A DNA stretch of 63,277 nt, from NCBI GenBank assembly GCA_016176405.1, contig JACOXG010000011.1, positions 1 to 63,277 on the forward strand. Reading direction: 5' to 3'. This DNA is from Candidatus Daviesbacteria bacterium (lineage in GTDB: Bacteria; Patescibacteriota; Microgenomatia; Daviesbacterales; UBA10151). Within the stretch, counting starts at the first letter, position 1; each line of letters begins with the position of its first letter. Of this stretch, positions 23,519 to 63,277 are shown in pieces. The notes beneath the pieces are model-generated. The model searched no databases. It had not been told where the DNA came from and saw only the letters and a list, made by a program, of their open reading frames with translations. Position numbers and translations under genes: made by a program.

Positions 23519-23524
23519 ACTAGC

Positions 23525-23561
23525 TTCCCACCTTCCAAGCGGGGATGTAGAGTATTTGATC
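23525..23561 (+). repeat. intergenic copy of the TTCCCAC..GTGGGA hairpin element
   Basis: TTCCCACCTTCCAAGCGGGGATGTAGAGTATTTGATC aligns with 45436-45470 inside holB. Confidence 0.7.
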
Positions 23562-25999: not shown

Positions 26000-26002
26000 T
26001 TA

Positions 26003-26100
26003 GATGCGAGAAGTTAGAAGTGGGAAGATGGATTATTGAGATGAGAAGTGAGATAATCACACATCATTATCCATATTCACATTTCCCATATCTCATATCT
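26003..26100. repeat. heptamer-periodic array (GANNNNN)x8 followed by six inverted-type units
   Basis: gatgcga gaagtta gaagtgg gaagatg gattatt gagatga gaagtga gataatc | acacatc attatcc atattca catttcc catatct catatct. Its reverse complement resembles 63233-63277. Confidence 0.8.
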
Positions 26101-26425
26101 GTTATAAATATCAAGAATAGAGCTATATAACAAGCTAAAGTAGAGGAGTGGAGTAAAGATTTTCCGACGAAAGCGTGAAAACTTATAGGATATTTCGTGA
26201 AAAAAAATCTATGTTATAGTATGATATATTTGCCAGGCACAAATGTGGAAAACTATGGGGTCTATTATGCCTACTCTTGGCATCCTATGTATATAATTGC
26301 TAATGTTGTTCTTTAGATAACCTCGTTATCGCAAGAACTGATAAGTTCTTACATAACCCGAAGCTCCTCGGAGAAGAGAGGTGCTCTGTCCCTTCGCAAT
26401 TTTAATGATTTAATAGTTGACTAGT

Positions 26426-26477
26426 GAAATAAGCTAACTAGTTAACTAGTCCACTGATTCGCTAGTTAGCTTATTTC
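26426..26477. repeat. perfect 16-bp inverted repeat GAAATAAGCTAACTAG-N20-CTAGTTAGCTTATTTC
   Basis: Read directly; embeds the 32-nt repeat shared with 18136-18167. Confidence 0.85.
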
Positions 26478-26829
26478 CCTCTCTTCGGTCTTCCCTATAT
26501 TATCTTGTCGGACAATGTATCTTATGCGATGTCAAAGAAGTGGTTTCCTGGAGAAGTGGCTTTGGTACAACTTAAGCATCTAATTAATGCCAAAGCCAGC
26601 GGATTTTGACTACTATATTTTGGTATCTATTTTGTTATATTCCCGACCAAAATTTTTATTAATAATTATTGCCAAATTATAAACTATATCAATTAAGTCT
26701 TTAGGGCTTTGGGACGGCCTAACCTAAGGATGACTCAATATAGCTCTTATCCCCTGAGAAGCCGTTTTTAGGCCCTTGCAAGGCTTCATGCCTAACTAGC
26801 CTCAGAAGATGTAATGGACCCCAGCCCGT

Positions 26830-27175
26830 GTCATCCTGAACGAAGTGAAGGATCTGATTAAGTGTTTAAATCATTCCAATATGGATTCATACTCATAATA
26901 AGGGAATTTTTCTTTTTTCTAGTCCACCCTTTAAGTCGTTTTTCTGCCGCAATAGCATCATTAACCTGACCAAATTCTTCATAGTATAAAAGTTTAGTGA
27001 TGTTATATTTTTTAGTAAAACCCTCAATTAATTTATTTTTATGTTCATAAATTCTTCTAGTTAGATTGTCAGTAATACCTATGTATATGACTTTATTATT
27101 AGGATTACTCATTATATAAACCCAATAGCTCATCTTTAGATATTATCAGATTCTTCGCTAATCGCTCAGAATGAC
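26830..27175 (-). mobile_element. GIY-YIG nuclease gene flanked by inverted copies of the GTCATCCTGAGCG..CGAAGGATC repeat (candidate autonomous unit)
   Basis: GTCATCCTGAACGAAGTGAAGGATC at 26830-26854. The reverse complement of 27149-27175 is GTCATTCTGAGCGATTAGCGAAGAATC. Confidence 0.45.
26858..27133 (-). CDS. GIY-YIG nuclease-domain protein (UPF0213/YhbQ-like)
   Basis: YWVYIMSN..VIYIGITDNLTRRIYEHK..E..K motifs. Confidence 0.88.
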   Translation of the reverse strand: MSYWVYIMSNPNNKVIYIGITDNLTRRIYEHKNKLIEGFTKKYNITKLLYYEEFGQVNDAIAAEKRLKGWTRKKKNSLIMSMNPYWNDLNT

Positions 27176-27258
27176 ATTCTTGATCTGTCCTTTTGTTGTC
27201 GGACAATATAACTCACTGCTTGACAGCTTGTCTTGTTTTGTTCTACTGTAAACTTATA

Positions 27259-34109: not shown

Positions 34110-34319
34110 TCAGATGGGTTTTCCAAGAAGTCCATAGATGGATAGATCACGCAGAAATCCAATAGCTTGATATGGCCAAGTTAAAATTACGGAATAAAAT
34201 TGTGGTGATAAGAAAGAAAGAAAAGGCCACCTGTAATAGATGGCAAAGATAATGGCAAAAATAAAGCCAAACATAAAATAGAATATGGCAATGGTTGATA
34301 AAAGCTTTTCTTTAGACAT
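34110..34319 (-). CDS. small membrane protein
   Basis: 69 aa, two hydrophobic helices, abuts the gyrA stop. Confidence 0.45.
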   Translation of the reverse strand: MSKEKLLSTIAIFYFMFGFIFAIIFAIYYRWPFLSFLSPQFYSVILTWPYQAIGFLRDLSIYGLLGKPI

Positions 34320-36811
34320 TACTCAACCCTATCCCCTGATGAAACCACGGTGGCAGCAGCCACCTTTTCCCCCGCTCTTACTCTCATCAAAATTACTCCC
34401 TGAGTTTGTCTTTGCAAAGTGGGTACCTGTTTAAGATCCATCTTAATCAGCTGCCCCTTGGTAGAGGTTAAAACCAGGGTATCCATCTTTTTATCAACAA
34501 CTTGTGCTGTCACAATTTGGCCGGTTTTAGAAGTGACTTGAGCAGCCTTGACTCCCTGTCCTCCCCGACCTTGTCTATTCCAGGATGTGGTGAGAGTCTT
34601 TTTACCTAAACCATTCTCCATCACTACCAGGAGTTCCCCTTCATCTTTACCAATTATATTAAGTGAAACTACCTCATCATCTTTGCCTAACTTGATACCT
34701 CTAACACCTGAGGTATCCCGGTGTGTAGCCTTAACCTGACCCTCGGAAAACCTGATACTTTTCCCTTTTAGAGAGACAATCATGGCATCATCCTCCCCAC
34801 TGGTAGGACAAACCCAACCCAACTGATCACCTTGATCTAACTTAATGGCCACCAGGCCGTTTTTGCGAATATTGGCATATTCCTCAAGGGTGGTTTTTTT
34901 GACAGTCCCCTTTTTAGTACACATTAAGAAATATTTGGCCACCTCAGCCTTGGCCCGGCTGGTTAAAACCGCGGTGATTTTCTCACCTTGCTCAATATTG
35001 ATTAAATTAACCACAGCCTGTCCTTTGGCAGCTCTTTGAGTCTCCGGAATCTCCCAAACCTTGATTTGAAAAACCTTGCCTTTATCTGAGAAAAATAATA
35101 AATTATCATGGGTTTGAGTGTAAAAGATGTGGGAAACAGCATCTGTTTCCTTGGTAGCAATACCCATCACCCCTTTGCCACCTCTTTGTTGGGTTCTAAA
35201 TGAATGGGGTGATTGTCTCTTTATATAACCACCTTCAGTGATAGTGACAATAGTCACCTCATTTTGGACCAAATCTTCTTCGGAAAACTCCCCTACTTTT
35301 TGTTTATAAACCCGGGTTTTCCTATCATCGGCATATTTTTCTTTAATATTGATCAGCTCATCTTTAATAACTTTGAGAATTTTTTCCGGGTGAGAGAGCA
35401 AATCCTCCAGATAAGCAATAGTTTCCCTAACCATTTTTAGCTCATCCTCAATTTTTTGCCGCTCCAATGCTGCTAATCTTCGAAGTTGCATATCCAAAAT
35501 AGCAATTGATTGGATTTCAGTTAATTTGAATTTTTTCATTAAATTAGTCTTAGCCTCATCAGCATCCTTGGATTTTTTGATAGTCTCAATCACCGCATCA
35601 ATATTGTCTACCGCAATTTTTAATCCTTCTAAAATATGCTCTCTAGCTTTTGCCTCAGCCAGTTCAAACTCTGATCTTTTTCTGACAATGATTTGCCTAT
35701 GATGAATAAACTCAGTTAGGATCTGTTTTAGAGTTAAAAGATGAGGTACTCCATCTGATAAAGCCACTAAATTAACATTAAAAACAGACTGCATGGCAGT
35801 TGATTTATATAAATTGTTTAATAAAGACTGGGGTTTGGCATCTCTTTTTAGATCAAAGACAATTCTGACCATTTGTTTTCTGTCTGATTCATCCCTAAGG
35901 TCAGAGATTCCCTCCAGCTTTTTGTCCTTGACCAGTTCGGCAATTCTGGCAATTAGAGTGGCTTTATTAACCTGGTATGGCAGTTCTGAAACAATAATTT
36001 GCATTTTTCCCTTAACATCCTCATCAACTTCAGCTTTAGCTCTCATCACAATCCTGCCCTTGCCAGTGGCATAGGCTGCTATAATTTCTTGAGCATCATA
36101 AATTGAGGCACCTGTGGGAAAATCTGGGCCTTTAATATACTGCATTAGATCTTCAACTGTGGCATCAGATTCAAAGGATTCTTCTTTTTTGGCTTCTCCA
36201 TTAGCTTTGATCTGATGGTCAATCATGTAAATTAAGCCGTCACAAACCTCCCCTAAATTATGAGGTGGGATTTGGGTGGCCATACCAACAGCAATACCGG
36301 AGGCTCCATTTAATAACAGGTTGGGTATAACTGAGGGTAAAAGTATTGGTTCTTGGGTAGTGCCAGAATAATTATCAATAAATTTGACAGTATTTTTGTT
36401 GATGTCTCTTAACAGTTCATCTGAAATTGCAGCTAGCCTGGCCTCAGTATATCTCATGGCAGCCGGAGAATCCCCATCTATTGATCCAAAATTTCCCTGT
36501 CCATCAATCAGCATATACCTTAGGGAAAAATTTTGAGCCATTCTGACTAAGGCTTCATAAACAGGAGCATCTCCGTGTGGATGGAAGTTTTTTAAGACTT
36601 CACCTACAACGGCAGCAGACTTTTGGTATCTGGAAGTATGATGAAGTCCTTGCTGGTGCATGGCATAAATAATTCTTCGCTGAACTGGTTTAAGACCATC
36701 CCGGACATCAGGAAGTGCCCTAGATACAATCACAGACATGGCATAGTCCAAATAGGACCTTTGCATCTCTTCCACTATGGGAGCCGGTTGTACTTTACCA
36801 ACGTTTTGCAT
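34319..36811 (-). CDS. gyrA: DNA gyrase subunit A
   Basis: AAMRYTEARL active-site Tyr region; C-terminal beta-pinwheel repeats. Confidence 0.97.
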   Translation of the reverse strand: MQNVGKVQPAPIVEEMQRSYLDYAMSVIVSRALPDVRDGLKPVQRRIIYAMHQQGLHHTSRYQKSAAVVGEVLKNFHPHGDAPVYEALVRMAQNFSLRYMLIDGQGNFGSIDGDSPAAMRYTEARLAAISDELLRDINKNTVKFIDNYSGTTQEPILLPSVIPNLLLNGASGIAVGMATQIPPHNLGEVCDGLIYMIDHQIKANGEAKKEESFESDATVEDLMQYIKGPDFPTGASIYDAQEIIAAYATGKGRIVMRAKAEVDEDVKGKMQIIVSELPYQVNKATLIARIAELVKDKKLEGISDLRDESDRKQMVRIVFDLKRDAKPQSLLNNLYKSTAMQSVFNVNLVALSDGVPHLLTLKQILTEFIHHRQIIVRKRSEFELAEAKAREHILEGLKIAVDNIDAVIETIKKSKDADEAKTNLMKKFKLTEIQSIAILDMQLRRLAALERQKIEDELKMVRETIAYLEDLLSHPEKILKVIKDELINIKEKYADDRKTRVYKQKVGEFSEEDLVQNEVTIVTITEGGYIKRQSPHSFRTQQRGGKGVMGIATKETDAVSHIFYTQTHDNLLFFSDKGKVFQIKVWEIPETQRAAKGQAVVNLINIEQGEKITAVLTSRAKAEVAKYFLMCTKKGTVKKTTLEEYANIRKNGLVAIKLDQGDQLGWVCPTSGEDDAMIVSLKGKSIRFSEGQVKATHRDTSGVRGIKLGKDDEVVSLNIIGKDEGELLVVMENGLGKKTLTTSWNRQGRGGQGVKAAQVTSKTGQIVTAQVVDKKMDTLVLTSTKGQLIKMDLKQVPTLQRQTQGVILMRVRAGEKVAAATVVSSGDRVE

Positions 36812-36882
36812 CTTAGTGAGGCATTAAAAAAAGGCTTTTAAGCCATAATAATTATATCCTTTTTAAGGCTGCAAAAGCAAGG

Positions 36883-37518
36883 TTATACTTCCTCAAATTT
36901 GGCATTTTTGTAAAATTTTGGGCCTGATTCTAGAATAAATTCTTTGGGATCGCCTCTGTCTAAATTTATGATTCCATCTAAATGATCAATTTCGTGTTGA
37001 AAAACTCTATTTAGCTTTTTGCCCAACAGAGTATGGTGCTTGGTTTTCCATTCTTGCAGCTGACCCATTTCATCAAAATATTCAAACTCAATCCAGGTAG
37101 GTCTGATTAAAGGTACAATTACTGGATTAGCACTCATACACATTTCAGGGTACTTATTCTTTTCCTTTGAAAATTTAGTAATTTTGGGATTAATGATGGT
37201 AACTAGCTTCCCACTTGACGAGTGGGAATTCGGATTATAGATGACGGCAAATCTCTCATGAATTCCCACTTGAGGAGCAGCAATTCCTCTACCCATGCCA
37301 GTTAGTTTTCTATATTTTAGTAAACAATTTTTTAAATATTTAATTTTTTGCTGAAAAATTTTAGAAGTAATTTGATTGACCGGAACTGGTTTTGAGGACT
37401 GTCTTAAAATAGGAGACTCCCCTATTTGATAAATAAAATTAGAAACCAAAGCCGCCCTCTCAAAAACTTTAACTTTGTATTTCCTAAATGGAGCTAAATC
37501 TGGTTTCCAAGATTTCAT
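36883..37518 (-). CDS. def: peptide deformylase
   Basis: GRGIAAPQVG, EMCMS and HEIDHLDG motifs. Contains the in-frame hairpin 37208-37228. Confidence 0.9.
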   Translation of the reverse strand: MKSWKPDLAPFRKYKVKVFERAALVSNFIYQIGESPILRQSSKPVPVNQITSKIFQQKIKYLKNCLLKYRKLTGMGRGIAAPQVGIHERFAVIYNPNSHSSSGKLVTIINPKITKFSKEKNKYPEMCMSANPVIVPLIRPTWIEFEYFDEMGQLQEWKTKHHTLLGKKLNRVFQHEIDHLDGIINLDRGDPKEFILESGPKFYKNAKFEEV

Positions 37519-38405
37519 TTCAAAGCTAATTTGATGATTTTATCTAAAAGTTTAGGAAAAGTAATGCCAATAGCTTGAGCTGCTTTGGGAAATAATGAGG
37601 CAGCTGTTAAACCCGGGATTGTATTAATCTCCAATACGTAAGGTGTTCCATTATAAACTATGAAATCTATTCTGGAAAATTGGCCTAGATTTAAAGTTTT
37701 GTGAATTTTTAATGCTATTTTTTGAGCTTGTTGTTGGATCTTTTTACTTACAGATGGAGCATGAGGTATTTCTTGAGTTACCCCAGAATATTTATTTTGA
37801 TAATCAAACCAACCGCCTTTAGGTGGAACAATTTCTATAATTGGTAAAGCATAGTTTTGCAAAATTGCCACTGTAATTTCTACACCTTCCAGATATTTTT
37901 CTACTAGAAGAGGTAATTTTGATTTCAATAATTTATTAATTAGAGAGCTTTTTAAATCACTTACTGTTTTTAAAATAACTACTTCCCTGGAAGATCCACC
38001 AGAAGAACTTTTTAAAACAGAGGGAAAGCCAAATTCCTGTATCTCTTTTTTCGTTTTAACTATTTTCCAAGCTGCCGTTGGAATATTTAAATCTTCACAG
38101 AATTTCTTAAAGGGAATTTTGTACCAGCCCTTTTTATAACCTTGCCACTTACCTCCCACAAATGATATCCCTAAATTTGATAAAAACTTTTGTAAGCCCC
38201 CTCCTTCTCCTTCTTCACCGTGAAGAACTGGAAAAATAACATCAAAATTTTTTGATATTTTTTTAAGCTCCTTAAAACCTTTTTTAAGGTCAAAAAGTTT
38301 TACTGAATGTCCAATTTCTGCCAAGCCCTTTTTAACTTGTTTGGCAGACATAAGAGAAATTCTTCTTTCAGATGATGTTCCACCGGTAATGATTAAAACC
38401 CTCAT
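37515..38405 (-). CDS. ddl: D-alanine--D-alanine ligase
   Basis: GGTSSERRISL..FPVLHGEEGEGG..ATP-grasp C-terminus EINTIPG. Confidence 0.9.
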   Translation of the reverse strand: MRVLIITGGTSSERRISLMSAKQVKKGLAEIGHSVKLFDLKKGFKELKKISKNFDVIFPVLHGEEGEGGGLQKFLSNLGISFVGGKWQGYKKGWYKIPFKKFCEDLNIPTAAWKIVKTKKEIQEFGFPSVLKSSSGGSSREVVILKTVSDLKSSLINKLLKSKLPLLVEKYLEGVEITVAILQNYALPIIEIVPPKGGWFDYQNKYSGVTQEIPHAPSVSKKIQQQAQKIALKIHKTLNLGQFSRIDFIVYNGTPYVLEINTIPGLTAASLFPKAAQAIGITFPKLLDKIIKLALK

Positions 38406-38470
38406 AACAACAAATTATAACCCATAGCGTACATTATTTCGACTATCCAATATCTTGTGGATTGACAAAG

Positions 38471-39025
38471 ATGGTTATCTTGTTTATTGTGGGTTTTATG
38501 CAGCTGAAACTTTTAGCAATAGGGATTATTTTAATGGGAATATTTTCCCGCCTTGTTCCCCATGCTCCCAATATTGCAGCCATCGGGGCTTTAATGCTTT
38601 TTGGAGGAGTATATTTGCCTAAAAAGATTTTCTGGCTGCCTATTTTGGCTTTATTTATTACTGATTTTTTTATTGGCTTTTATGGAACAGATATGATTTA
38701 TGTTTATGGAAGCTATCTACTTGTTGGTTTGATTGGGCTTTGGCTAAGAAAACATAAGAAACCTTTAATTGTTTTAGGTTCTGCTTTAACCTCCTCAGTA
38801 TTATTTTTCTTAATTACTAACTTTGGAGTTTGGGCCCCACCTAATAATTGGTATCCTCACACCCTGGATGGATTACTAACCAGCTACACCATGGCCCTAC
38901 CCTTTTTTAGAAATTCTTTAATAGGAGATTTGGGATATACTGTTTTACTCTTTGGCGGATATGAAATTATTCAATATCTTTCTAAGAAATATTTGCCCCG
39001 AAAACTTTTTCAACTGCTTTATTAA
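38471..39025 (+). CDS. integral membrane protein, unknown function
   Basis: Five or six TM helices; 3' end overlaps the convergent murD by 44 nt. Confidence 0.55.
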   Translation: MVILFIVGFMQLKLLAIGIILMGIFSRLVPHAPNIAAIGALMLFGGVYLPKKIFWLPILALFITDFFIGFYGTDMIYVYGSYLLVGLIGLWLRKHKKPLIVLGSALTSSVLFFLITNFGVWAPPNNWYPHTLDGLLTSYTMALPFFRNSLIGDLGYTVLLFGGYEIIQYLSKKYLPRKLFQLLY

Positions 39026-40415
39026 ATTTTCTGCCTCTATCAAATTCATTTTGGAATAAATTAAAAGAAGTAGCTGCTGGGGAAAAGAGAATGATATCCC
39101 CTTTTTTGACTATTTCTTTTACATCAATAAGTAATTTTTCTAAATCATCATAAGTCCCTGCTATTAAATCTTTGTTTTTCATTAATTTTTTAATTTGATC
39201 CGTAGAATCTCCTTCTAAAAAGAAAACTTTCTTGACAGAATTCCCTACGATCGTTGCATATTTTGTATAGTCCATTCCTTTGTTCATCCCTCCACAAATT
39301 AGGATACACCCTGGAAATGTTTTGATGGCTTGAATCCCCGCTTCAGGGGAAGTGGCAGTTGTATCATTGATAATTTTGACTCCATTCCAAACCTTGATAA
39401 GTTCCATCCGAAATGAGATACCTTTAAAATGTAATGTAACCTCCAAAATGGTTTCTTCATCCATCCCAAACGTCTTGGTTATAGCAAAAGCAGCTGCTAT
39501 GTTTTCTAAGTTATGTTCCCCCTTCAATCTTGGTTTAAAATCTTTAGGAAGGTCCTCTTTTGAAAAATAAATTATTTGAGCCTTTAATCCTTTTAGGAAG
39601 TTAGGTTTACTGGTTATTGGATCAAATTTTTTTAAAAATAAGTAATCAGACTTTGTTTGGTATTTTCCTATTATTATTTTTGACTGAATATATTCTTCCA
39701 TGGTTTGGTAATAATTAAGGTGGTCAGGTGTAATGTTGGTGATCACAGCCCACTTGGGAGAAACCTTATGTTGCTCGAAAGCTTCCAGCTGAAATGAGGA
39801 AATTTCTAAAACTACCAGAGTATCTGGTTTAACATGAGGTATGGTATCCAAAACACTTTTACCAATGTTTCCTGCTAAAATTATATTATTCCATGTATGT
39901 ATGCGTTGTACATGCCCGGCATGGGTTAGCTTGACATGCCAGGATTTTGCCAGATATTTGTTCAAAACATCATAAATCAAGGAAGCTATAGTGGATTTGC
40001 CTTTGGTGCCGGTGATTCCAATAATTTGAGAAGGTTTTACAAAATCTAGAAAAATTCCCATGTCTTGTTGTACCTTTTTGCCCTGTTTTCTAGCATATTC
40101 AATATGAACATTCCCAGGTTTTACAGCAGGATTTTTAATGATTAGATCAGCCCACTCTATATCCTCATTTTTATGTTCACCTAAAGTATAGGTAATATTG
40201 GGAAAGCTTTTTAATTGATCTAATGAGAGCTTAAGAATCTGTTTTGATTTTAAATCAGTTACTCTAACTGTTGCCCCCTGTTGGGCAAAAAATTTAGCAG
40301 ATCCCACTCCACCCTGATTTAACCCCAAGCCAAAGATAAGAACCCGCGTTCCACGGAACCTTGCCTTTTTGCTTCGCAAAAACGTAAGTACCTTCTTTCC
40401 TTTAAATTCATCCAT
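38982..40415 (-). CDS. murD: UDP-N-acetylmuramoylalanine--D-glutamate ligase
   Basis: GITGTKGKST P-loop; Mur ligase middle and C-terminal domains. Confidence 0.9.
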   Translation of the reverse strand: MDEFKGKKVLTFLRSKKARFRGTRVLIFGLGLNQGGVGSAKFFAQQGATVRVTDLKSKQILKLSLDQLKSFPNITYTLGEHKNEDIEWADLIIKNPAVKPGNVHIEYARKQGKKVQQDMGIFLDFVKPSQIIGITGTKGKSTIASLIYDVLNKYLAKSWHVKLTHAGHVQRIHTWNNIILAGNIGKSVLDTIPHVKPDTLVVLEISSFQLEAFEQHKVSPKWAVITNITPDHLNYYQTMEEYIQSKIIIGKYQTKSDYLFLKKFDPITSKPNFLKGLKAQIIYFSKEDLPKDFKPRLKGEHNLENIAAAFAITKTFGMDEETILEVTLHFKGISFRMELIKVWNGVKIINDTTATSPEAGIQAIKTFPGCILICGGMNKGMDYTKYATIVGNSVKKVFFLEGDSTDQIKKLMKNKDLIAGTYDDLEKLLIDVKEIVKKGDIILFSPAATSFNLFQNEFDRGRKFNKAVEKVFGANIS

Positions 40416-40437
40416 GGTATGGTATTATATCGCCCAT

Positions 40438-41244
40438 ATGAATAACAATCCAATTGGCATATTTGATTCAGGGATCGGTGGTTTAACAGTTGTTAAGGAA
40501 ATTTTAAAAGAATTACCCAGTGAAAATATTATTTATCTAGGTGATACAGCCAGAGTGCCTTATGGCACTAGAGGTAAGGAAGTTATCACTAAATTTGCTT
40601 TGGATCTGGCCAATTTCCTTTTAAAAAAGAAAGTCAAATTTTTAGTAGTTTCTTGTAATACCATTTCCTCTATCTGTTTGGATGTAATTGAATATATTTC
40701 CCCTGTGCCAGTTCTGGGAGTTATCCAACCGGCTGTAGATGAAGCCTTAAAGACTACCAGATCTGGTGTAATAGGGGTAATAGGAACTCCTGCCACCATT
40801 GCTTCTAAAATTTATGAGAAAAAACTTAAAAGGAAAAATCCCAAATTAAAAGTAAAGACTGTCTCCTGTCCTTTATTTGTGCCTCTGGCTGAAGAGGGAT
40901 TGATAAATCATGCTGCCACTAAATTGGTAGCCAAAGAATATCTTAAAGGATTCAAAAATAATGGAATTGATACTTTAATTTTGGGTTGCACTCACTATCC
41001 CATCCTAAGATCCATTATCCAGCAAACAGTTGGACCAAAAGTAACTTTGATTGATTCAGCCAAACCTACGGCCAAAAAACTGAACGAGCTTTTAGAAGAA
41101 AAAAATTTACTAAGAAGTGAGGAAAAAGTTAGGCATGAGTTTTTTGTGACAGATGCACCAGAGAGGGTGTATAAAGTGGCTGACAATTTTTTTGGCGATC
41201 ACCTAAATGGGAAGTTAAAAGAGATTAACCTACCAATTGCTTAG
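40438..41244 (+). CDS. murI: glutamate racemase
   Basis: IGIFDSGIGGLTV and LGCTHYP catalytic Cys motifs; ATG 40438 preferred. Confidence 0.92.
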   Translation: MNNNPIGIFDSGIGGLTVVKEILKELPSENIIYLGDTARVPYGTRGKEVITKFALDLANFLLKKKVKFLVVSCNTISSICLDVIEYISPVPVLGVIQPAVDEALKTTRSGVIGVIGTPATIASKIYEKKLKRKNPKLKVKTVSCPLFVPLAEEGLINHAATKLVAKEYLKGFKNNGIDTLILGCTHYPILRSIIQQTVGPKVTLIDSAKPTAKKLNELLEEKNLLRSEEKVRHEFFVTDAPERVYKVADNFFGDHLNGKLKEINLPIA

Positions 41245-42604
41245 CAATTTTATCTATATCCCCTGCTCCCATGAAAAAGATAATATCACCACTTTGAACA
41301 TGGTGTTTAAGCATTGGTATTATTTGGTCCTTGGTATGATAGACTAGATTACTTGACCCAACTGCCTCTACTAATTGTTTTGAAGTAACTAAACCTGTGT
41401 CCACTTCCCTACTTGGATAAATATCAGTAATAATTATTTTGTCCACAGGTAATTCTTTAAATACTTTGACAAAATCATCAAAAAGGGCTTTTGTTCTAGA
41501 AAACATGTGGGGTTGATAAATTAAAATAATTCTATTTTTAGGAAATTTTTCCCTGGCAGCTTGCATGGTGGTTTTTATTTCTGTTGGGTGATGTCCAAAA
41601 TCAGAATAAACCTTAGCTCCCACTTGTCCTGAGCTTGTCGAAGGATGGTACTCCCCAATATACTCAAATCTTCTGCCTATTCCAGGGTAATTGGATAAAC
41701 TTTTTTGAATAGTTTGTGGACTAATTCCTAAAAGAAGTCCAACTTGATAAGCTGCTGAGGCATTCCATCTGTTAAATTCACCAGGAATCTCTAAGGAAAA
41801 ATCTATGGGTTTCTTTGAATAATCTAAAGTTATATTGCCACCCTTGGGGTGGACATTCAGAATTTCTGTTACTACAGGATCCGAAAGATTGGCCACAATG
41901 GTCTGTTTTGTGGATTCCAAGAATTTTTTAAAACTATCTTTGTACGAATCAAAATCCTGAAAATACTCCGGATGATCCATTTCAATATTGGTGACAACTG
42001 AAATATCAGGAGAGGTTGCTAAAAAATTATCATTAAACTCATCAGCTTCAACTAGGAAAAAACCCTTTTTGTCATCTCGAGTGATTAACGAGAGATCTCT
42101 AGATTTTGAATCATGAGATTCCTCACTTCGTTCGGAATGACGTGAGGAAATTCTGTAATTTGCTTTCCACCAAGGGACTATGGTTCCTAGTTCCACCGTA
42201 GGATCTAGCCCAGCATCCTCTAAAATTTTAGCAATCATGGCAGTGGTGGTAGTTTTACCATGAGTTCCACAAACAGCTATTACAAATTTATCCTTCATTA
42301 AATACTTTCCCATAAACTCCTGCCAAGTAAGAATAGGAATTTCCCCCCCCTTTGCCTCTAAAAGTTCTGGATTATTGGGATCTAAAGAGTATATGGCAGG
42401 TGTTACTGCCAATATATCTACGTTCCCACTTTTCAAGTGGGAAGCTGAATGCCCTTGGGATAACTTGACACTTCCGATGTGTAAAGTGAATTCGTTGTTT
42501 GGCTCAAGGTCACAGCCACTAACTTCAAATCCATAAGCTTTTGCAATAGCTGCAGCAGCAGATGCTCCAGACCCCCCAATTCCTAAAAAATGTACTTTTT
42601 TCAT
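41225..42604 (-). CDS. murC: UDP-N-acetylmuramate--L-alanine ligase
   Basis: GIGGSGASA, GTHGKTTT, EADEF, NIEMDH, GHHPTE motifs. Carries repeat insertions. Confidence 0.93.
   Translation of the reverse strand: MKKVHFLGIGGSGASAAAAIAKAYGFEVSGCDLEPNNEFTLHIGSVKLSQGHSASHLKSGNVDILAVTPAIYSLDPNNPELLEAKGGEIPILTWQEFMGKYLMKDKFVIAVCGTHGKTTTTAMIAKILEDAGLDPTVELGTIVPWWKANYRISSRHSERSEESHDSKSRDLSLITRDDKKGFFLVEADEFNDNFLATSPDISVVTNIEMDHPEYFQDFDSYKDSFKKFLESTKQTIVANLSDPVVTEILNVHPKGGNITLDYSKKPIDFSLEIPGEFNRWNASAAYQVGLLLGISPQTIQKSLSNYPGIGRRFEYIGEYHPSTSSGQVGAKVYSDFGHHPTEIKTTMQAAREKFPKNRIILIYQPHMFSRTKALFDDFVKVFKELPVDKIIITDIYPSREVDTGLVTSKQLVEAVGSSNLVYHTKDQIIPMLKHHVQSGDIIFFMGAGDIDKIAKQLVG
42071..42141. repeat. in-frame inverted pair of the GTCATCC..GGATC family inside murC
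   Basis: GTCATCTCGAGTGATTAACGAGAGATCTC (42071-42099) and GAGATTCCTCACTTCGTTCGGAATGAC (42115-42141), translated as SRHSERSEESHDSKSRDLSLITRDD. Confidence 0.8.
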
Positions 42605-42682
42605 TTGACAAATTATATGATTTTTAAGGTGTAAAAGCGACTAATTGATTATTTTATTATTAAGATATAAACTAATTCTAAA

Positions 42683-44859
<2,177 letters not shown>

Positions 44860-44870
44860 TTATTTTATCA

Positions 44871-45524
44871 TTATTTGGAGGGCATCACCAGCATTAAATA
44901 TTCCAAAATGGCCCGGATATTGACATTTTGATTGGCCCATTCTTCAGCCTGCAGTAATTCTTTTATAAAATCTGTGCTCCCACTTTGAATGTGGGAAGCT
45001 AGATTTTTATGAAAATAATTTACTAAGGCATATAAAAATTCTTCTCTATCCTTTAGTTTTTCAATGTATTCAAATCTTTCTTCTATGCTTATTCTTAAAA
45101 GTCTTTCAATATCAGCTATATAGATACCAACCCCCGGTGTTGGATAGCTTGAAACCTCGGGTATATGGATAACCTGGCAGCGTGAGATGATAGTGGGTAA
45201 CAACTTTGACTCATTATCCACCCCCAAAATAAAAAGCCCCTCCTTCGGTAGTTCCTCAAGGGTTTTTAACAGGGCATTTTGGGCCTCAATTGTCAAATTA
45301 GAAGCATCTTCCAAAACGACTGCTCTGCCTTTGGCAGAATATGGTTTTAGGGAAAAATGTTCTTTAATTTTTCTGGCCTCAGCAATTCCTAATTTAGAAT
45401 CAGCATTAAAATATAAAACATCCGGATGATTTGTATTCCCACTTCCCAAGTGGGAACGTAGAGTTTGATCAATTTCTTTTTTGATATCTTCTAAAGATGG
45501 TGAAATCAAAAGTTTGGCTATCAT
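44871..45524 (-). CDS. holB: DNA polymerase III delta-prime-like subunit (short form)
   Basis: EAQNALLKTLEELP and SRCQVIHI motifs. 217 aa. Contains three repeat-derived segments. Confidence 0.78.
   Translation of the reverse strand: MIAKLLISPSLEDIKKEIDQTLRSHLGSGNTNHPDVLYFNADSKLGIAEARKIKEHFSLKPYSAKGRAVVLEDASNLTIEAQNALLKTLEELPKEGLFILGVDNESKLLPTIISRCQVIHIPEVSSYPTPGVGIYIADIERLLRISIEERFEYIEKLKDREEFLYALVNYFHKNLASHIQSGSTDFIKELLQAEEWANQNVNIRAILEYLMLVMPSK
45126..45163 (+). repeat. REP copy (ACCAACCCCCGGTGTTGGATAGCTTGAAACCTCGGGTA) inside holB
   Basis: Same element as at 52932, 53684 (inverted) and 62874; translated as IPEVSSYPTPGVGI. Confidence 0.8.
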
Positions 45525-52841: not shown

Positions 52842-52931
52842 TTTAAATTTACCTAGTACCACTACGCCCTTTATCAAATTTATCAAACAGGTATGCCCCT
52901 CGCTACTAGTCGCACTACTAATTACGTGTTA

Positions 52932-53727
52932 CCAACCCCCGGTGTCAACACCCGGGGTTTAATAGCTTGAAACCTAAGGATATTTTGTGGTAATGTAGCC
53001 TTATGCCATACCGTAAGACTCCCCTATCCCAAGGAGAGATTTATCACATCTTCAATCGCAGTGTTGCCAGACAACCCATCTTTTTAGGAAATAGAGATTA
53101 TCAAAGAGCTTTGGAGACGATCAGATTTTATCTCTTTTCCGGAGCTCATTTAAGTTTCTCCCATTATGACAGGTTACCTCTGCAACAACGCTCTGATTTT
53201 ATGAAAAAACTGGAAGAGTCAAATGAAAGGCAGATAGAAATCTTTGCTTACTGTCTCATGCCAAATCACCTCCATTTCTTAATGAAGTGCCTAAGGGATA
53301 AAGGTATTAGCAATTTCATGAATTGGTTGCAAAATAGCTACGCCAAATACTTCAATATTAAAACGGAGAGAAGTGGGGCTTTATTCCAATCAATGTTTAA
53401 GGCAGTCAGAATTGAATCAGATGAACAATTCATCCATGTGGGGCGTTATATCCATCTTAATCCCTTAACTGCCTATATTATAAAAAACTCAGCCCAACTA
53501 GAGAACTATCCATGGTCTTCCTTTGCAGAGTATCTGGATAATCAGGATCCCAAAATTATCAGCAGAGAGCTCATGTTAGGTCACTTCTCTTCCGTAGAAG
53601 CCTTTAAAAGATTCACTTTTGATCAAATAGATTATCAAAGAAAATTAGCCGAAATTAAACACTTACTAAATGAGTAAACTTTGGATTTTCCTTAGGTTTC
53701 TATTCAACCAACCCCCGGTGTTGGTTT
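52932..53727 (+). mobile_element. RAYT (REP-associated Y1 transposase) unit with flanking inverted REPs
   Basis: Left REP 52932-52980 and inverted right REP 53684-53727 bracket the IS200-like gene. Confidence 0.75.
53003..53677 (+). CDS. IS200-like/REP-associated tyrosine transposase (RAYT)
   Basis: HIFNRSVARQPIF, HUH motif in CLMPNHLHFLM, catalytic Tyr region GRYIHLNPL. Confidence 0.88.
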   Translation: MPYRKTPLSQGEIYHIFNRSVARQPIFLGNRDYQRALETIRFYLFSGAHLSFSHYDRLPLQQRSDFMKKLEESNERQIEIFAYCLMPNHLHFLMKCLRDKGISNFMNWLQNSYAKYFNIKTERSGALFQSMFKAVRIESDEQFIHVGRYIHLNPLTAYIIKNSAQLENYPWSSFAEYLDNQDPKIISRELMLGHFSSVEAFKRFTFDQIDYQRKLAEIKHLLNE

Positions 53728-62871: not shown

Positions 62872-62873
62872 GT

Positions 62874-62909
62874 AAACACCGGGTGTTGGTTAGCTTGAAA
62901 CCTCGGGAT
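62874..62909 (+). repeat. REP copy overlapping the 3' end of the KH-domain gene
   Basis: AAACACCGGGTGTTGGTTAGCTTGAAACCTCGGGAT. The reverse strand reads ..NPEVSS-stop. Confidence 0.8.
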
Positions 62910-63150
62910 TTTGTCCACCTGGTTCAGCAAGTTGCAAATTCACTCTAACGTTTTCAGCTATAGCTCTGACAGTTAAAAGCTTTCTAATTGCCCTAATTGT
63001 CTGGCCATTTTTACCAATAATTAGTCCCATATCAGATGGATCAACAGTTAAATTAAGATCTACATTACCCTCCTGATTGTTTTCTTCAATTTTAACAGCA
63101 TCCGGTTTGGTCACCAAACTGGTGACAATAAAATTAAGCAGGTCTTTCAT
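62890..63150 (-). CDS. KH-domain RNA-binding protein (YlqC/UPF0109-like)
   Basis: MKDLLNFIVTSLV..GLIIGKNGQTIRAIRKLL (GxxG KH motif). ATG 63150 preceded by AGGAG. The upstream ORF extension lies in heptamer-repeat DNA. Confidence 0.85.
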   Translation of the reverse strand: MKDLLNFIVTSLVTKPDAVKIEENNQEGNVDLNLTVDPSDMGLIIGKNGQTIRAIRKLLTVRAIAENVRVNLQLAEPGGQNPEVSS

Positions 63151-63277
63151 CTTTAGGCTCCTTTTCAGATGTGGGAGGTGTGACATGTGAGGTGGGATTT
63201 TGAGGTGGGATTTCTTGATTTTCTTGATCTTGATTCTCACTTCTCACCTCATTATCCATTTTCTCACTTCCCACTTC

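Follow-up and report, generated by a model that had tools for sequence, protein, structure and literature searches.

A probable REP-type hairpin element read in frame inside essential genes of a Candidatus Daviesbacteria bacterium

Repetitive extragenic palindromes (REPs) are grouped in REP/RAYT systems with the REP-associated tyrosine transposase (RAYT), a Y1 (HUH) transposase of the IS200/IS605 kind that acts on single-stranded DNA (ssDNA). Among the Rickettsia palindromic elements (RPEs), RPE-1 is about 100–150 bp long and Rickettsia-specific. REPs with a GTAG tag include intragenic copies, many of them in replication and repair genes, and are related to the RPEs (Di Nocera et al. 2013, PMC3733652); as far as that paper cites them, the RPEs are CGTC-tagged and without a dedicated transposase. 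Group 3 REPs consist of a perfect 8-bp palindrome and a 3-nt loop, and the GTAG is placed 5' of the hairpin in the characterised REPs of E. coli, S. maltophilia, and Marinomonas (PMC8266576). Here we analysed a window (the whole stretch of DNA under study, 63,277 nt) of contig JACOXG010000011.1, assembly GCA_016176405.1, from a Candidatus Daviesbacteria bacterium. A hairpin with TTCCCAC arms, called family 1, stood in frame at four places inside def, murC, and a holB-like gene. These four hairpins are most probably copies of a short non-autonomous REP-type element of a REP/RAYT system, filtered inside genes. The original prediction had treated in-frame palindromic inserts as unusual, which was overstated, because intragenic GTAG/CGTC REPs and RPEs have already been described (PMC3733652).

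The pattern TCCCAC-N6-AGTGGG (TCCCACNNNNNNAGTGGG) was found at 37209, 42424, 44979 (minus strand), and 45437, giving 7 strand matches against 0.01 expected. None of the 100 shuffles that set the chance level reached the palindrome count of the window. Three coding copies, TTCCCACTTGACGAGTGGGAA, TTCCCACTTTTCAAGTGGGAA, and TTCCCACTTCCCAAGTGGGAA, were perfect palindromes with arms of 8–9 bp, and the fourth, at 44977–44997 (CTCCCACTTTGAATGTGGGAA), was an imperfect one. The four coding copies folded as ssDNA with energies between −6.4 and −8.3 kcal/mol (z-scores between −3.2 and −5.5). All of them were located in the minus-strand genes def, murC, and holB-like (Table 1), and every one read S-H-x-x-S-G (NSHSSSGK, ASHLKSGN, ASHIQSGS, and RSHLGSGN, respectively). 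The coordinates, genes, and peptides proposed earlier for four coding copies of the form TCC CAC nnn nnn AGT GGG were thereby confirmed. Together with a decayed intergenic copy, the window held five family-1 copies, four of them inside essential genes. The extragenic hairpin began at 23525, 7 nt beyond the stop codon of a Fic-domain gene. As had been reported from the letters alone, the 23525–23561 copy resembled the holB copy; about 30 of 35 nt were common to both, including the flank GTAGAGT..TTGATC, while its right arm was decayed and folding was lost. In the final bases of the window, a single TTCCCACTT arm preceded the start codon (ATG) of a KH-domain gene; as proposed earlier, it might begin another copy, cut off by the end of the window. 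A lone arm at 37263 belongs to the native PQVGI motif of deformylase and is no copy of the element. A search of Rfam gave zero matches at the hairpin sites of the window.

For comparison we used about 1.2 Mb of related Microgenomates DNA, consisting of 80 metagenome loci around murC and about 20 genome loci, the latter retrieved with the palindrome itself as query; most of this DNA was thus picked around murC. It contained 67 unique family-1 copies, and the TTCCCAC palindrome outnumbered every other hairpin (32 copies in about 1 Mb of related DNA). The codons TCC-CAC..AGT-GGG were used in 41 of the 45 distinct SHxxSG peptides in open reading frames (ORFs) of at least 150 aa, against 0.14% expected from local codon usage. 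Across 14 of 14 distinct murC copies, no synonymous stem position varied, nor did the third position of the adjoining GTA (Val) codon, while conserved Ile, Leu, and Ala codons nearby differed freely at their third position. This codon invariance, the extragenic copies, and the conserved flank of non-coding type support an element that is defined by its nucleotides and hairpin and not by its peptide, as the original prediction had argued. If S-H-x-x-S-G were instead a peptide motif selected for modification, cleavage, or binding, with the palindrome incidental, its recurrence in many unrelated proteins would be accounted for. However, the use of one codon set effectively refutes this explanation; copies also exist in other frames and outside genes, and conservation of the flanking tags extends past the peptide, so the chance that it holds is close to nil.

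Alignment of the 67 distinct copies gave a full unit of about 29–36 nt, 5'-(AT)CTA-GC-[TTCCCAC-N7-GTGGGAA]-CG-TAG(AT)-3', which is a longer palindrome with a two-base mismatch. The outward flanks were of two kinds, GCTA(G/A) and CGTA(G), with the pooled consensus SSTAGAT. Mixed pairs (22) far outnumbered same-kind pairs (1 and 3), which means that the unit is oriented. An xGT(A/G)G flank occurred on exactly one side in 30 of the 67 copies, compared with roughly 2 expected. On the strand that reads GTAG, the tag was 3' of the hairpin at a distance of 1 nt (..GTGGGAA-C-GTAG), and the 5' side carried YTAG-C. Some copies had an additional tail, GTAGAGTTT(A/G)AT, in common. By these flanks, the orientation of the element was mixed among the four intragenic copies of the window. 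The unit shares with REPs the size of a short palindrome (21–36 nt), the arms and loop (a 3-nt loop in both, with arms of 9 bp here and of 8 bp in S. maltophilia), the GTAG-containing tag at one end, and the internal two-base mismatch.

The orientation of the unit also bears on whether the palindromes could be binding sites for a dimeric DNA-binding protein (parS, Noc, matS, or an operator) that lie in genes for want of intergenic space. Sites of the parS/Noc/matS type are commonly found in coding DNA, and such a role would suit the perfect dyad symmetry with a variable centre as well as the clustering of the four copies within 8.3 kb beside gyrA and gyrB. Against this, the flanks of the unit are unequal, copies flank transposase genes in two phyla, and the orthologous sites of close relatives are empty or hold other palindromes. 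The parS consensus is a 16-bp unspaced palindrome, TGTTNCACGTGAAACA, whose position is conserved among relatives. Family 1 does not appear to match it; its arms of 7–9 bp are separated by 3–7 nt, and its sites are empty or differently occupied in relatives. A binding-site origin is therefore very unlikely.

Within the comparison DNA, mostly chosen around murC, 53 of the 67 unique Microgenomates copies (~79%) lay within ORFs of at least 450 nt. When an independent site was counted as one host protein family plus one position in such ORFs, 22 sites were obtained, of which 18 were read as S-H, 2 as F-P-L, and 2 as V-P-T (binomial P ~4e-6). Among the 14 copies located extragenically or in short ORFs, the frames were split 6/5/3, as for untranslated DNA. 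Recurrent hosts were murC (two sites), murD, the holB-like gene (two sites), and def. One of the three frames is lost because both flanks contribute a TAG stop codon when the unit is read as P-T..V-G. The strong frame bias argues that the segments are translated rather than cut out of the mRNA. The earlier statement that the element is always read as S-H-x-x-S-G stood for the window, and its expectation of a frame bias was borne out by the census, but "always" did not extend to other genomes, where the F-P-L-x-K-W-E and V-P-T frames occur.

The orthologs of the host genes, 78 for murC and, for the holB-like gene, 37 from the loci and 117 database homologs, showed how the sites are occupied. 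The basic murC site was GH(S/D)P(K/E)HLE--N(V/I)DILA, and many orthologs had no hairpin whatsoever there. In some orthologs the hairpin appeared as six extra residues, HL(N/S)-SH(L/I)xSG-(K/N)VDILA, while the murC of the window and others had a net gain of two residues, apparently after losing the native P-x-H-L. Still other murC orthologs carried different palindromes at the same spot: TCCCAGAC..GTCTGGGA, CCACCCCGGGGGTGG, ACACCCCAGGGGTGT, CCCACCTGGGAGGTGGG, a second CCCCGATTCAATCGGGG, or long inserts with multiple palindromes. Likewise, at both holB-like sites the relatives were empty, hairpin-bearing, or occupied by other palindromes. At the level of sequence comparison, this presence and absence shows the murC copy and both holB-like copies to be lineage-specific insertions, as had been predicted. 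Gapless PDB alignments had first suggested evolution in place, or an embedded site of the parS/Noc type, and this was overturned by the 78 murC and 37 holB orthologs. The PDB alignments of Def and MurC hide the insertion because the net length change is small. The def homologs at related loci were ~30% identical, and no close ortholog was among them. In a strain-level comparison, only two contigs, each of 2 kb, were found to encode an identical HolB protein, and no difference was seen across the holB hairpins. In locus L151, the N-terminal holB site showed a second palindrome nested in the loop of the first (ASHIGS-LPAYPSGRRAGKAG-GNTNHPD), and the murC site had a CCCCGATTCAATCGGGG hairpin directly after the TTCCCAC hairpin.

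The same orthologs were relevant to a local and independent origin of each hairpin, by template-switch (quasi-palindrome) mutation at the loops. In murC orthologs that lack an insert, the sequence ..CTGGAAAACGTAGAT.. is already present and is similar to the right arm with its tag, and many different palindromes occur at the same loops. However, the same 14-nt arms, flanks, and discrete loop subtypes were found at no fewer than 22 unrelated sites and beside transposase genes, and we regard template switching as highly improbable.

The expected position of the inserts in surface loops was met with in the holB-like protein. In its AlphaFold model, with a mean predicted local distance difference test (pLDDT) score of 88.7, the inserts were at helix ends or in loops: the N-terminal one at the end of helix 11–26 and in the loop after it, and the C-terminal one in the turn between helices 175–179 and 184–198.

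The loops of the hairpin fell into few subtypes, TTGACAA (13 copies), ATCGGAA (10), TCGTCAA (6), ATGTCAA (5), and TTGGAAA (5), which recurred across genomes and sites. The one murC site showed different loop subtypes in different genomes. For this reason, repeated replacement at existing sites appears to fit the sequences better than one old, drifting insertion, although selection for the hairpin would be compatible too. Loop similarity between copies within one genome, as concerted evolution would give, was not significant (permutation p = 0.16).

A link to RAYT-type transposases was observed in two phyla. In three CPR (candidate phyla radiation) loci, L042, L056, and L030, the RAYT homolog had a TTCCCAC hairpin just upstream, another just downstream, and one inside the gene. 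In the homologs linked to family 1, the internal palindrome came right after the catalytic YIHRN at a fixed position (L030 6482, L042 793, L056 4769, and L005 77). It was read as F-P-L-(S/K)-(K/M)-W-E and was followed by R-R-V-Y-P in L042 only, by G-K-V-Y-P in L056, and by A-K-Y-H-H in L030. The exact 21-mer pattern was present at 97 loci of the genome collection against an estimated ~9 by chance, mostly in Campylobacterota and Methylococcaceae. In Campylobacterota, RAYT-like genes lay between two hairpins (L043 and L086) or had one copy just downstream (L010), and in L067 a RAYT-like gene fragment was enclosed by two copies. In these loci (L001–L097, from Campylobacterota, Methylococcaceae, and Gilliamella) the hairpin was mostly outside long ORFs and had flanks of its own, TGCA..CGAG. 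Horizontal transfer of close RAYT relatives between CPR and Campylobacterota was not supported, as the proteins were only ~23% identical. Convergence and ancient common descent are both conceivable sources of the identical 21-nt hairpin across phyla. In the Sulfuricurvum contig L038 (4436–5048), a NarE-like (PF21641) ORF and no transposase stood between two inverted TTCCCACTT palindromes separated by 592 bp. L047 (1078–1690; labelled Lentisphaerae) had the same two-palindrome layout around an unannotated ORF equal in length to that of L038.

The window itself contained one RAYT-like gene, whose protein matched Pfam Y1_Tnp with 43.2 bits (cutoff 23). It was flanked by inverted copies of a second repeat, family 2, which consists of CCAACCCCCGGTGTTGG followed by TAGCTTGAAACCT(C/A)(G/A)GGAT and has further copies in the window (Table 1). 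Closer RAYT homologs in L149, L101, and L140 were flanked by still other palindromes. Such diversity would be expected if every transposase lineage were paired with a repeat of its own.

Since the hairpin is found on both sides of RAYT-type transposase genes, the evidence favours the earlier suggestion of selfish insertions filtered for a harmless frame. In this explanation a RAYT would recognise the folded hairpin with its tag and cut and rejoin the adjacent DNA, by which copies would spread or be replaced. Since Microgenomates genomes have almost no intergenic space, most landings would fall inside genes. Purifying selection would keep the copies that add a multiple of three bases, that land in a flexible surface loop, and whose reading frame yields the small, polar (A/R)-S-H-x-x-S-G-(N/K) peptide. 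The F-P-L-x-K-W-E frame is bulky and would rarely be kept, and the P-T..V-G frame would meet the TAG stop. Mobilisation of the family-1 copies by a RAYT would presumably depend on a cognate enzyme encoded elsewhere in this genome, and the inserts are probably neutral for the host proteins.

Several results weigh against a REP/RAYT origin by selfish insertion. In the 63,277-nt window no RAYT gene was flanked by the TTCCCAC family, and the RAYT-like protein present was only 37% identical to the family-1-associated RAYT homologs. Its only NCBIfam match was REP_Tyr_transpos, at 57 bits, which is below the 80-bit equivalog cutoff. The family-1 RAYT loci were retrieved through a palindrome search, so that the association is partly an ascertainment effect. 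The GTAG of family 1 is 3' of the hairpin, 1 nt away, and not 5' as in the characterised REPs. All four intragenic family-1 copies were located in the only long minus-strand gene block (window 34319–45524). The murC stems were perfect and their silent sites invariant although the orthologs were only 57–71% identical in MurC. This suggests that something keeps the hairpin intact, and a neutral selfish view needs repeated replacement to account for it.

The intact stems might instead indicate that the hairpins are kept for a function at the RNA or ssDNA level, such as translational pausing where domains meet, the processing or stability of mRNA, or use as a signal by a RAYT domesticated as a host factor. 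In addition to the perfect stems and the invariant silent stem sites of the 14 murC copies, next to flanking silent sites that are saturated, the extragenic copy at 23525 has decayed and the intragenic copies have not. The RAYT homologs also retain a copy at a fixed position in their own coding sequence, and the literature on REPINs and RAYTs argues for long-term vertical persistence. However, many close orthologs are hairpin-free at these sites and others carry unrelated palindromes. The loop subtypes of the murC site are also found at other sites, which fits replacement better than conservation, and a 9-bp stem would be unwound by ribosomes. We consider such a function unlikely. It is also rather unlikely, though conceivable, that a CPR REP/RAYT system has moved into coding sequence, with hairpins that are actively maintained and replaced at the same loops and are functional for the host or the RAYT. 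Under such active maintenance the hairpins may serve as structural signals in ssDNA or mRNA, or as cassettes by which surface loops are rewritten.

Table 1. Positions of hairpin copies, host genes, and the transposase gene in the window
Feature	Position	Strand	Details
Family-1 copy in def	37201..37235		CTAGC-TTCCCACTTGACGAGTGGGAA-TTCGG; minus-strand reading N-S-H-S-S-S-G-K-L
Family-1 copy in murC	42416..42450		Sense strand cattcaGC-TTCCCACTTGAAAAGTGGGAA-CGTAGAT, read A-S-H-L-K-S-G-N-V-D; insertion hotspot among orthologs
Family-1 copy, C-terminal site of holB-like gene	44970..45004		Imperfect arms; A-S-H-I-Q-S-G-S; flank GCTAGAT
Family-1 copy, N-terminal site of holB-like gene	45429..45471		Tail CGTAGAGTTTGATC; minus-strand L-R-S-H-L-G-S-G-N
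Decayed extragenic family-1 copy	23520..23561	+	CTAGC-TTCCCACCTTCCAAGCGGGGA-TGTAGAGTATTTGATC; unit begins 3 nt past the stop of the Fic-domain gene
def (peptide deformylase)	36883-37518	-	PDB deformylases E = 5e-16; HEIDH motif present
murC	41225-42604	-	E = 4e-68
holB-like clamp-loader delta-prime subunit	44871-45524	-	Pfam DNA_pol3_delta2 E = 6e-26; three in-frame palindromic inserts
Further in-frame palindromic insert in murC	42047-42160	-	..SSRHSERSEESHDSKSRDLSLITRDDKKG.., ~30 aa; TTCCTCAC..GTGAGGAA and other palindromes
RAYT-like Y1 (HUH) transposase gene	53003-53677	+	224 aa; HUH motif H-L-H; catalytic Tyr in YIHLNP
Family-2 palindrome and tail	52930..52981	+	CCAACCCCCGGTGT..; ATAGCTTGAAACCTAAGGAT; immediately upstream of RAYT-like gene
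Family-2 inverted copy	53686..53726	-	TCCTTAGGTTTC..AACCAACCCCCGGTGTTGGTT; immediately downstream of RAYT-like gene
Family-2 copy in inter-domain linker of holB-like gene	45123..45164		In frame; PEVSSYPTPGVGI, P-E-V-S-S-Y-P-T-P-G-V-G-I; pLDDT <50
Family-2 copy in 18-nt spacer between trmD and KH-domain gene	62872..62909	+	Runs into 3' end of KH-domain ORF 62890-63240

The genes of the block 34319–45524 were gyrA, def, a ddl-like gene, murD, murC, gyrB, and the holB-like gene, with murI interleaved on the plus strand. The further murC insert at 42047–42160 had no counterpart in the MurC of E. coli or H. influenzae, and peptides of the RHSERSEES type recur in CPR proteins. In gyrB (42955–44853, minus strand), the window was without 57 nt at 44274/44275 in comparison with the public contigs L178 and L179, to which it was otherwise 100% identical. 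The missing segment codes for 19 aa, TPDFDRLERQLKQVAYLVA, and has the inverted repeat ACTCC/GGAGT at its ends; its absence reflects either an in-frame GyrB deletion at the strain level or an artefact of assembly. A region of 1.2 kb at 26000–27190 was without any ORF of at least 110 aa. The low-complexity motifs GAAGTGGGAAG and GAGAAGTGAG were present both there and at 63160–63277. Cumulative GC skew turned near 27 kb and again near 45 kb.

Compared with the known systems, family 1 and its sister families are closest to REP/RAYT. Here, too, as in the well-described REPtron arrangement, a Y1/HUH transposase gene is flanked by inverted copies (family 1 in L042, L056, L030, L043, and L086; family 2 in the window), several families occur in one genome, and some copies are intragenic and read through. 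The differences are that REPs are extragenic by definition, whereas intragenic copies predominate here with one dominant frame, that several palindrome families occupy the same loops of a protein, that the RAYT homologs have one copy within the transposase coding sequence itself, and that the host belongs to CPR/Microgenomates. A limited literature search found no report on REP/RAYT in CPR/Patescibacteria. With the Rickettsia RPEs, family 1 shares palindromic repeats that stand in frame in essential genes and are tolerated in permissive surface regions; it differs in the GTAG or CTAG tag, in the RAYT-like genes flanked by the repeat, and in inserts of only 6–13 codons. IS200/IS605 elements belong to the same superfamily (Pfam Y1_Tnp), and their enzyme recognises folded ssDNA hairpins with an adjacent guide or tag. 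Family 1, in contrast, consists of single hairpins of ~30 nt with no transposase between two different ends, and the transposase gene occurs once in the window. The uptake signal sequences (USS) of Haemophilus and the DNA uptake sequences (DUS) of Neisseria are nucleotide-defined intragenic motifs with preferred frames in less constrained parts of proteins. They are an analogy only, as uptake sequences are not tagged palindromic units, are far denser, and have no transposase link.

By definition REPs are extragenic, and how they spread and what they do is still a matter of debate. The present families, a REP-type family and its sisters, are found mainly within essential genes of the ultra-small genomes of CPR bacteria, in one frame and in the same few protein loops across many lineages, and their transposase genes are identifiable. 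They offer a natural data set on how an ssDNA transposase behaves when there is almost no non-coding DNA, on which loops of a protein can accept six to thirteen additional residues, and on whether hairpins are conserved or constantly replaced. In the holB-like family, the lineage-specific and partly nested inserts make the loops hard to align. Such elements also explain odd peptides that recur in CPR proteins, such as SHxxSG, TPGVG, and HPxGV.

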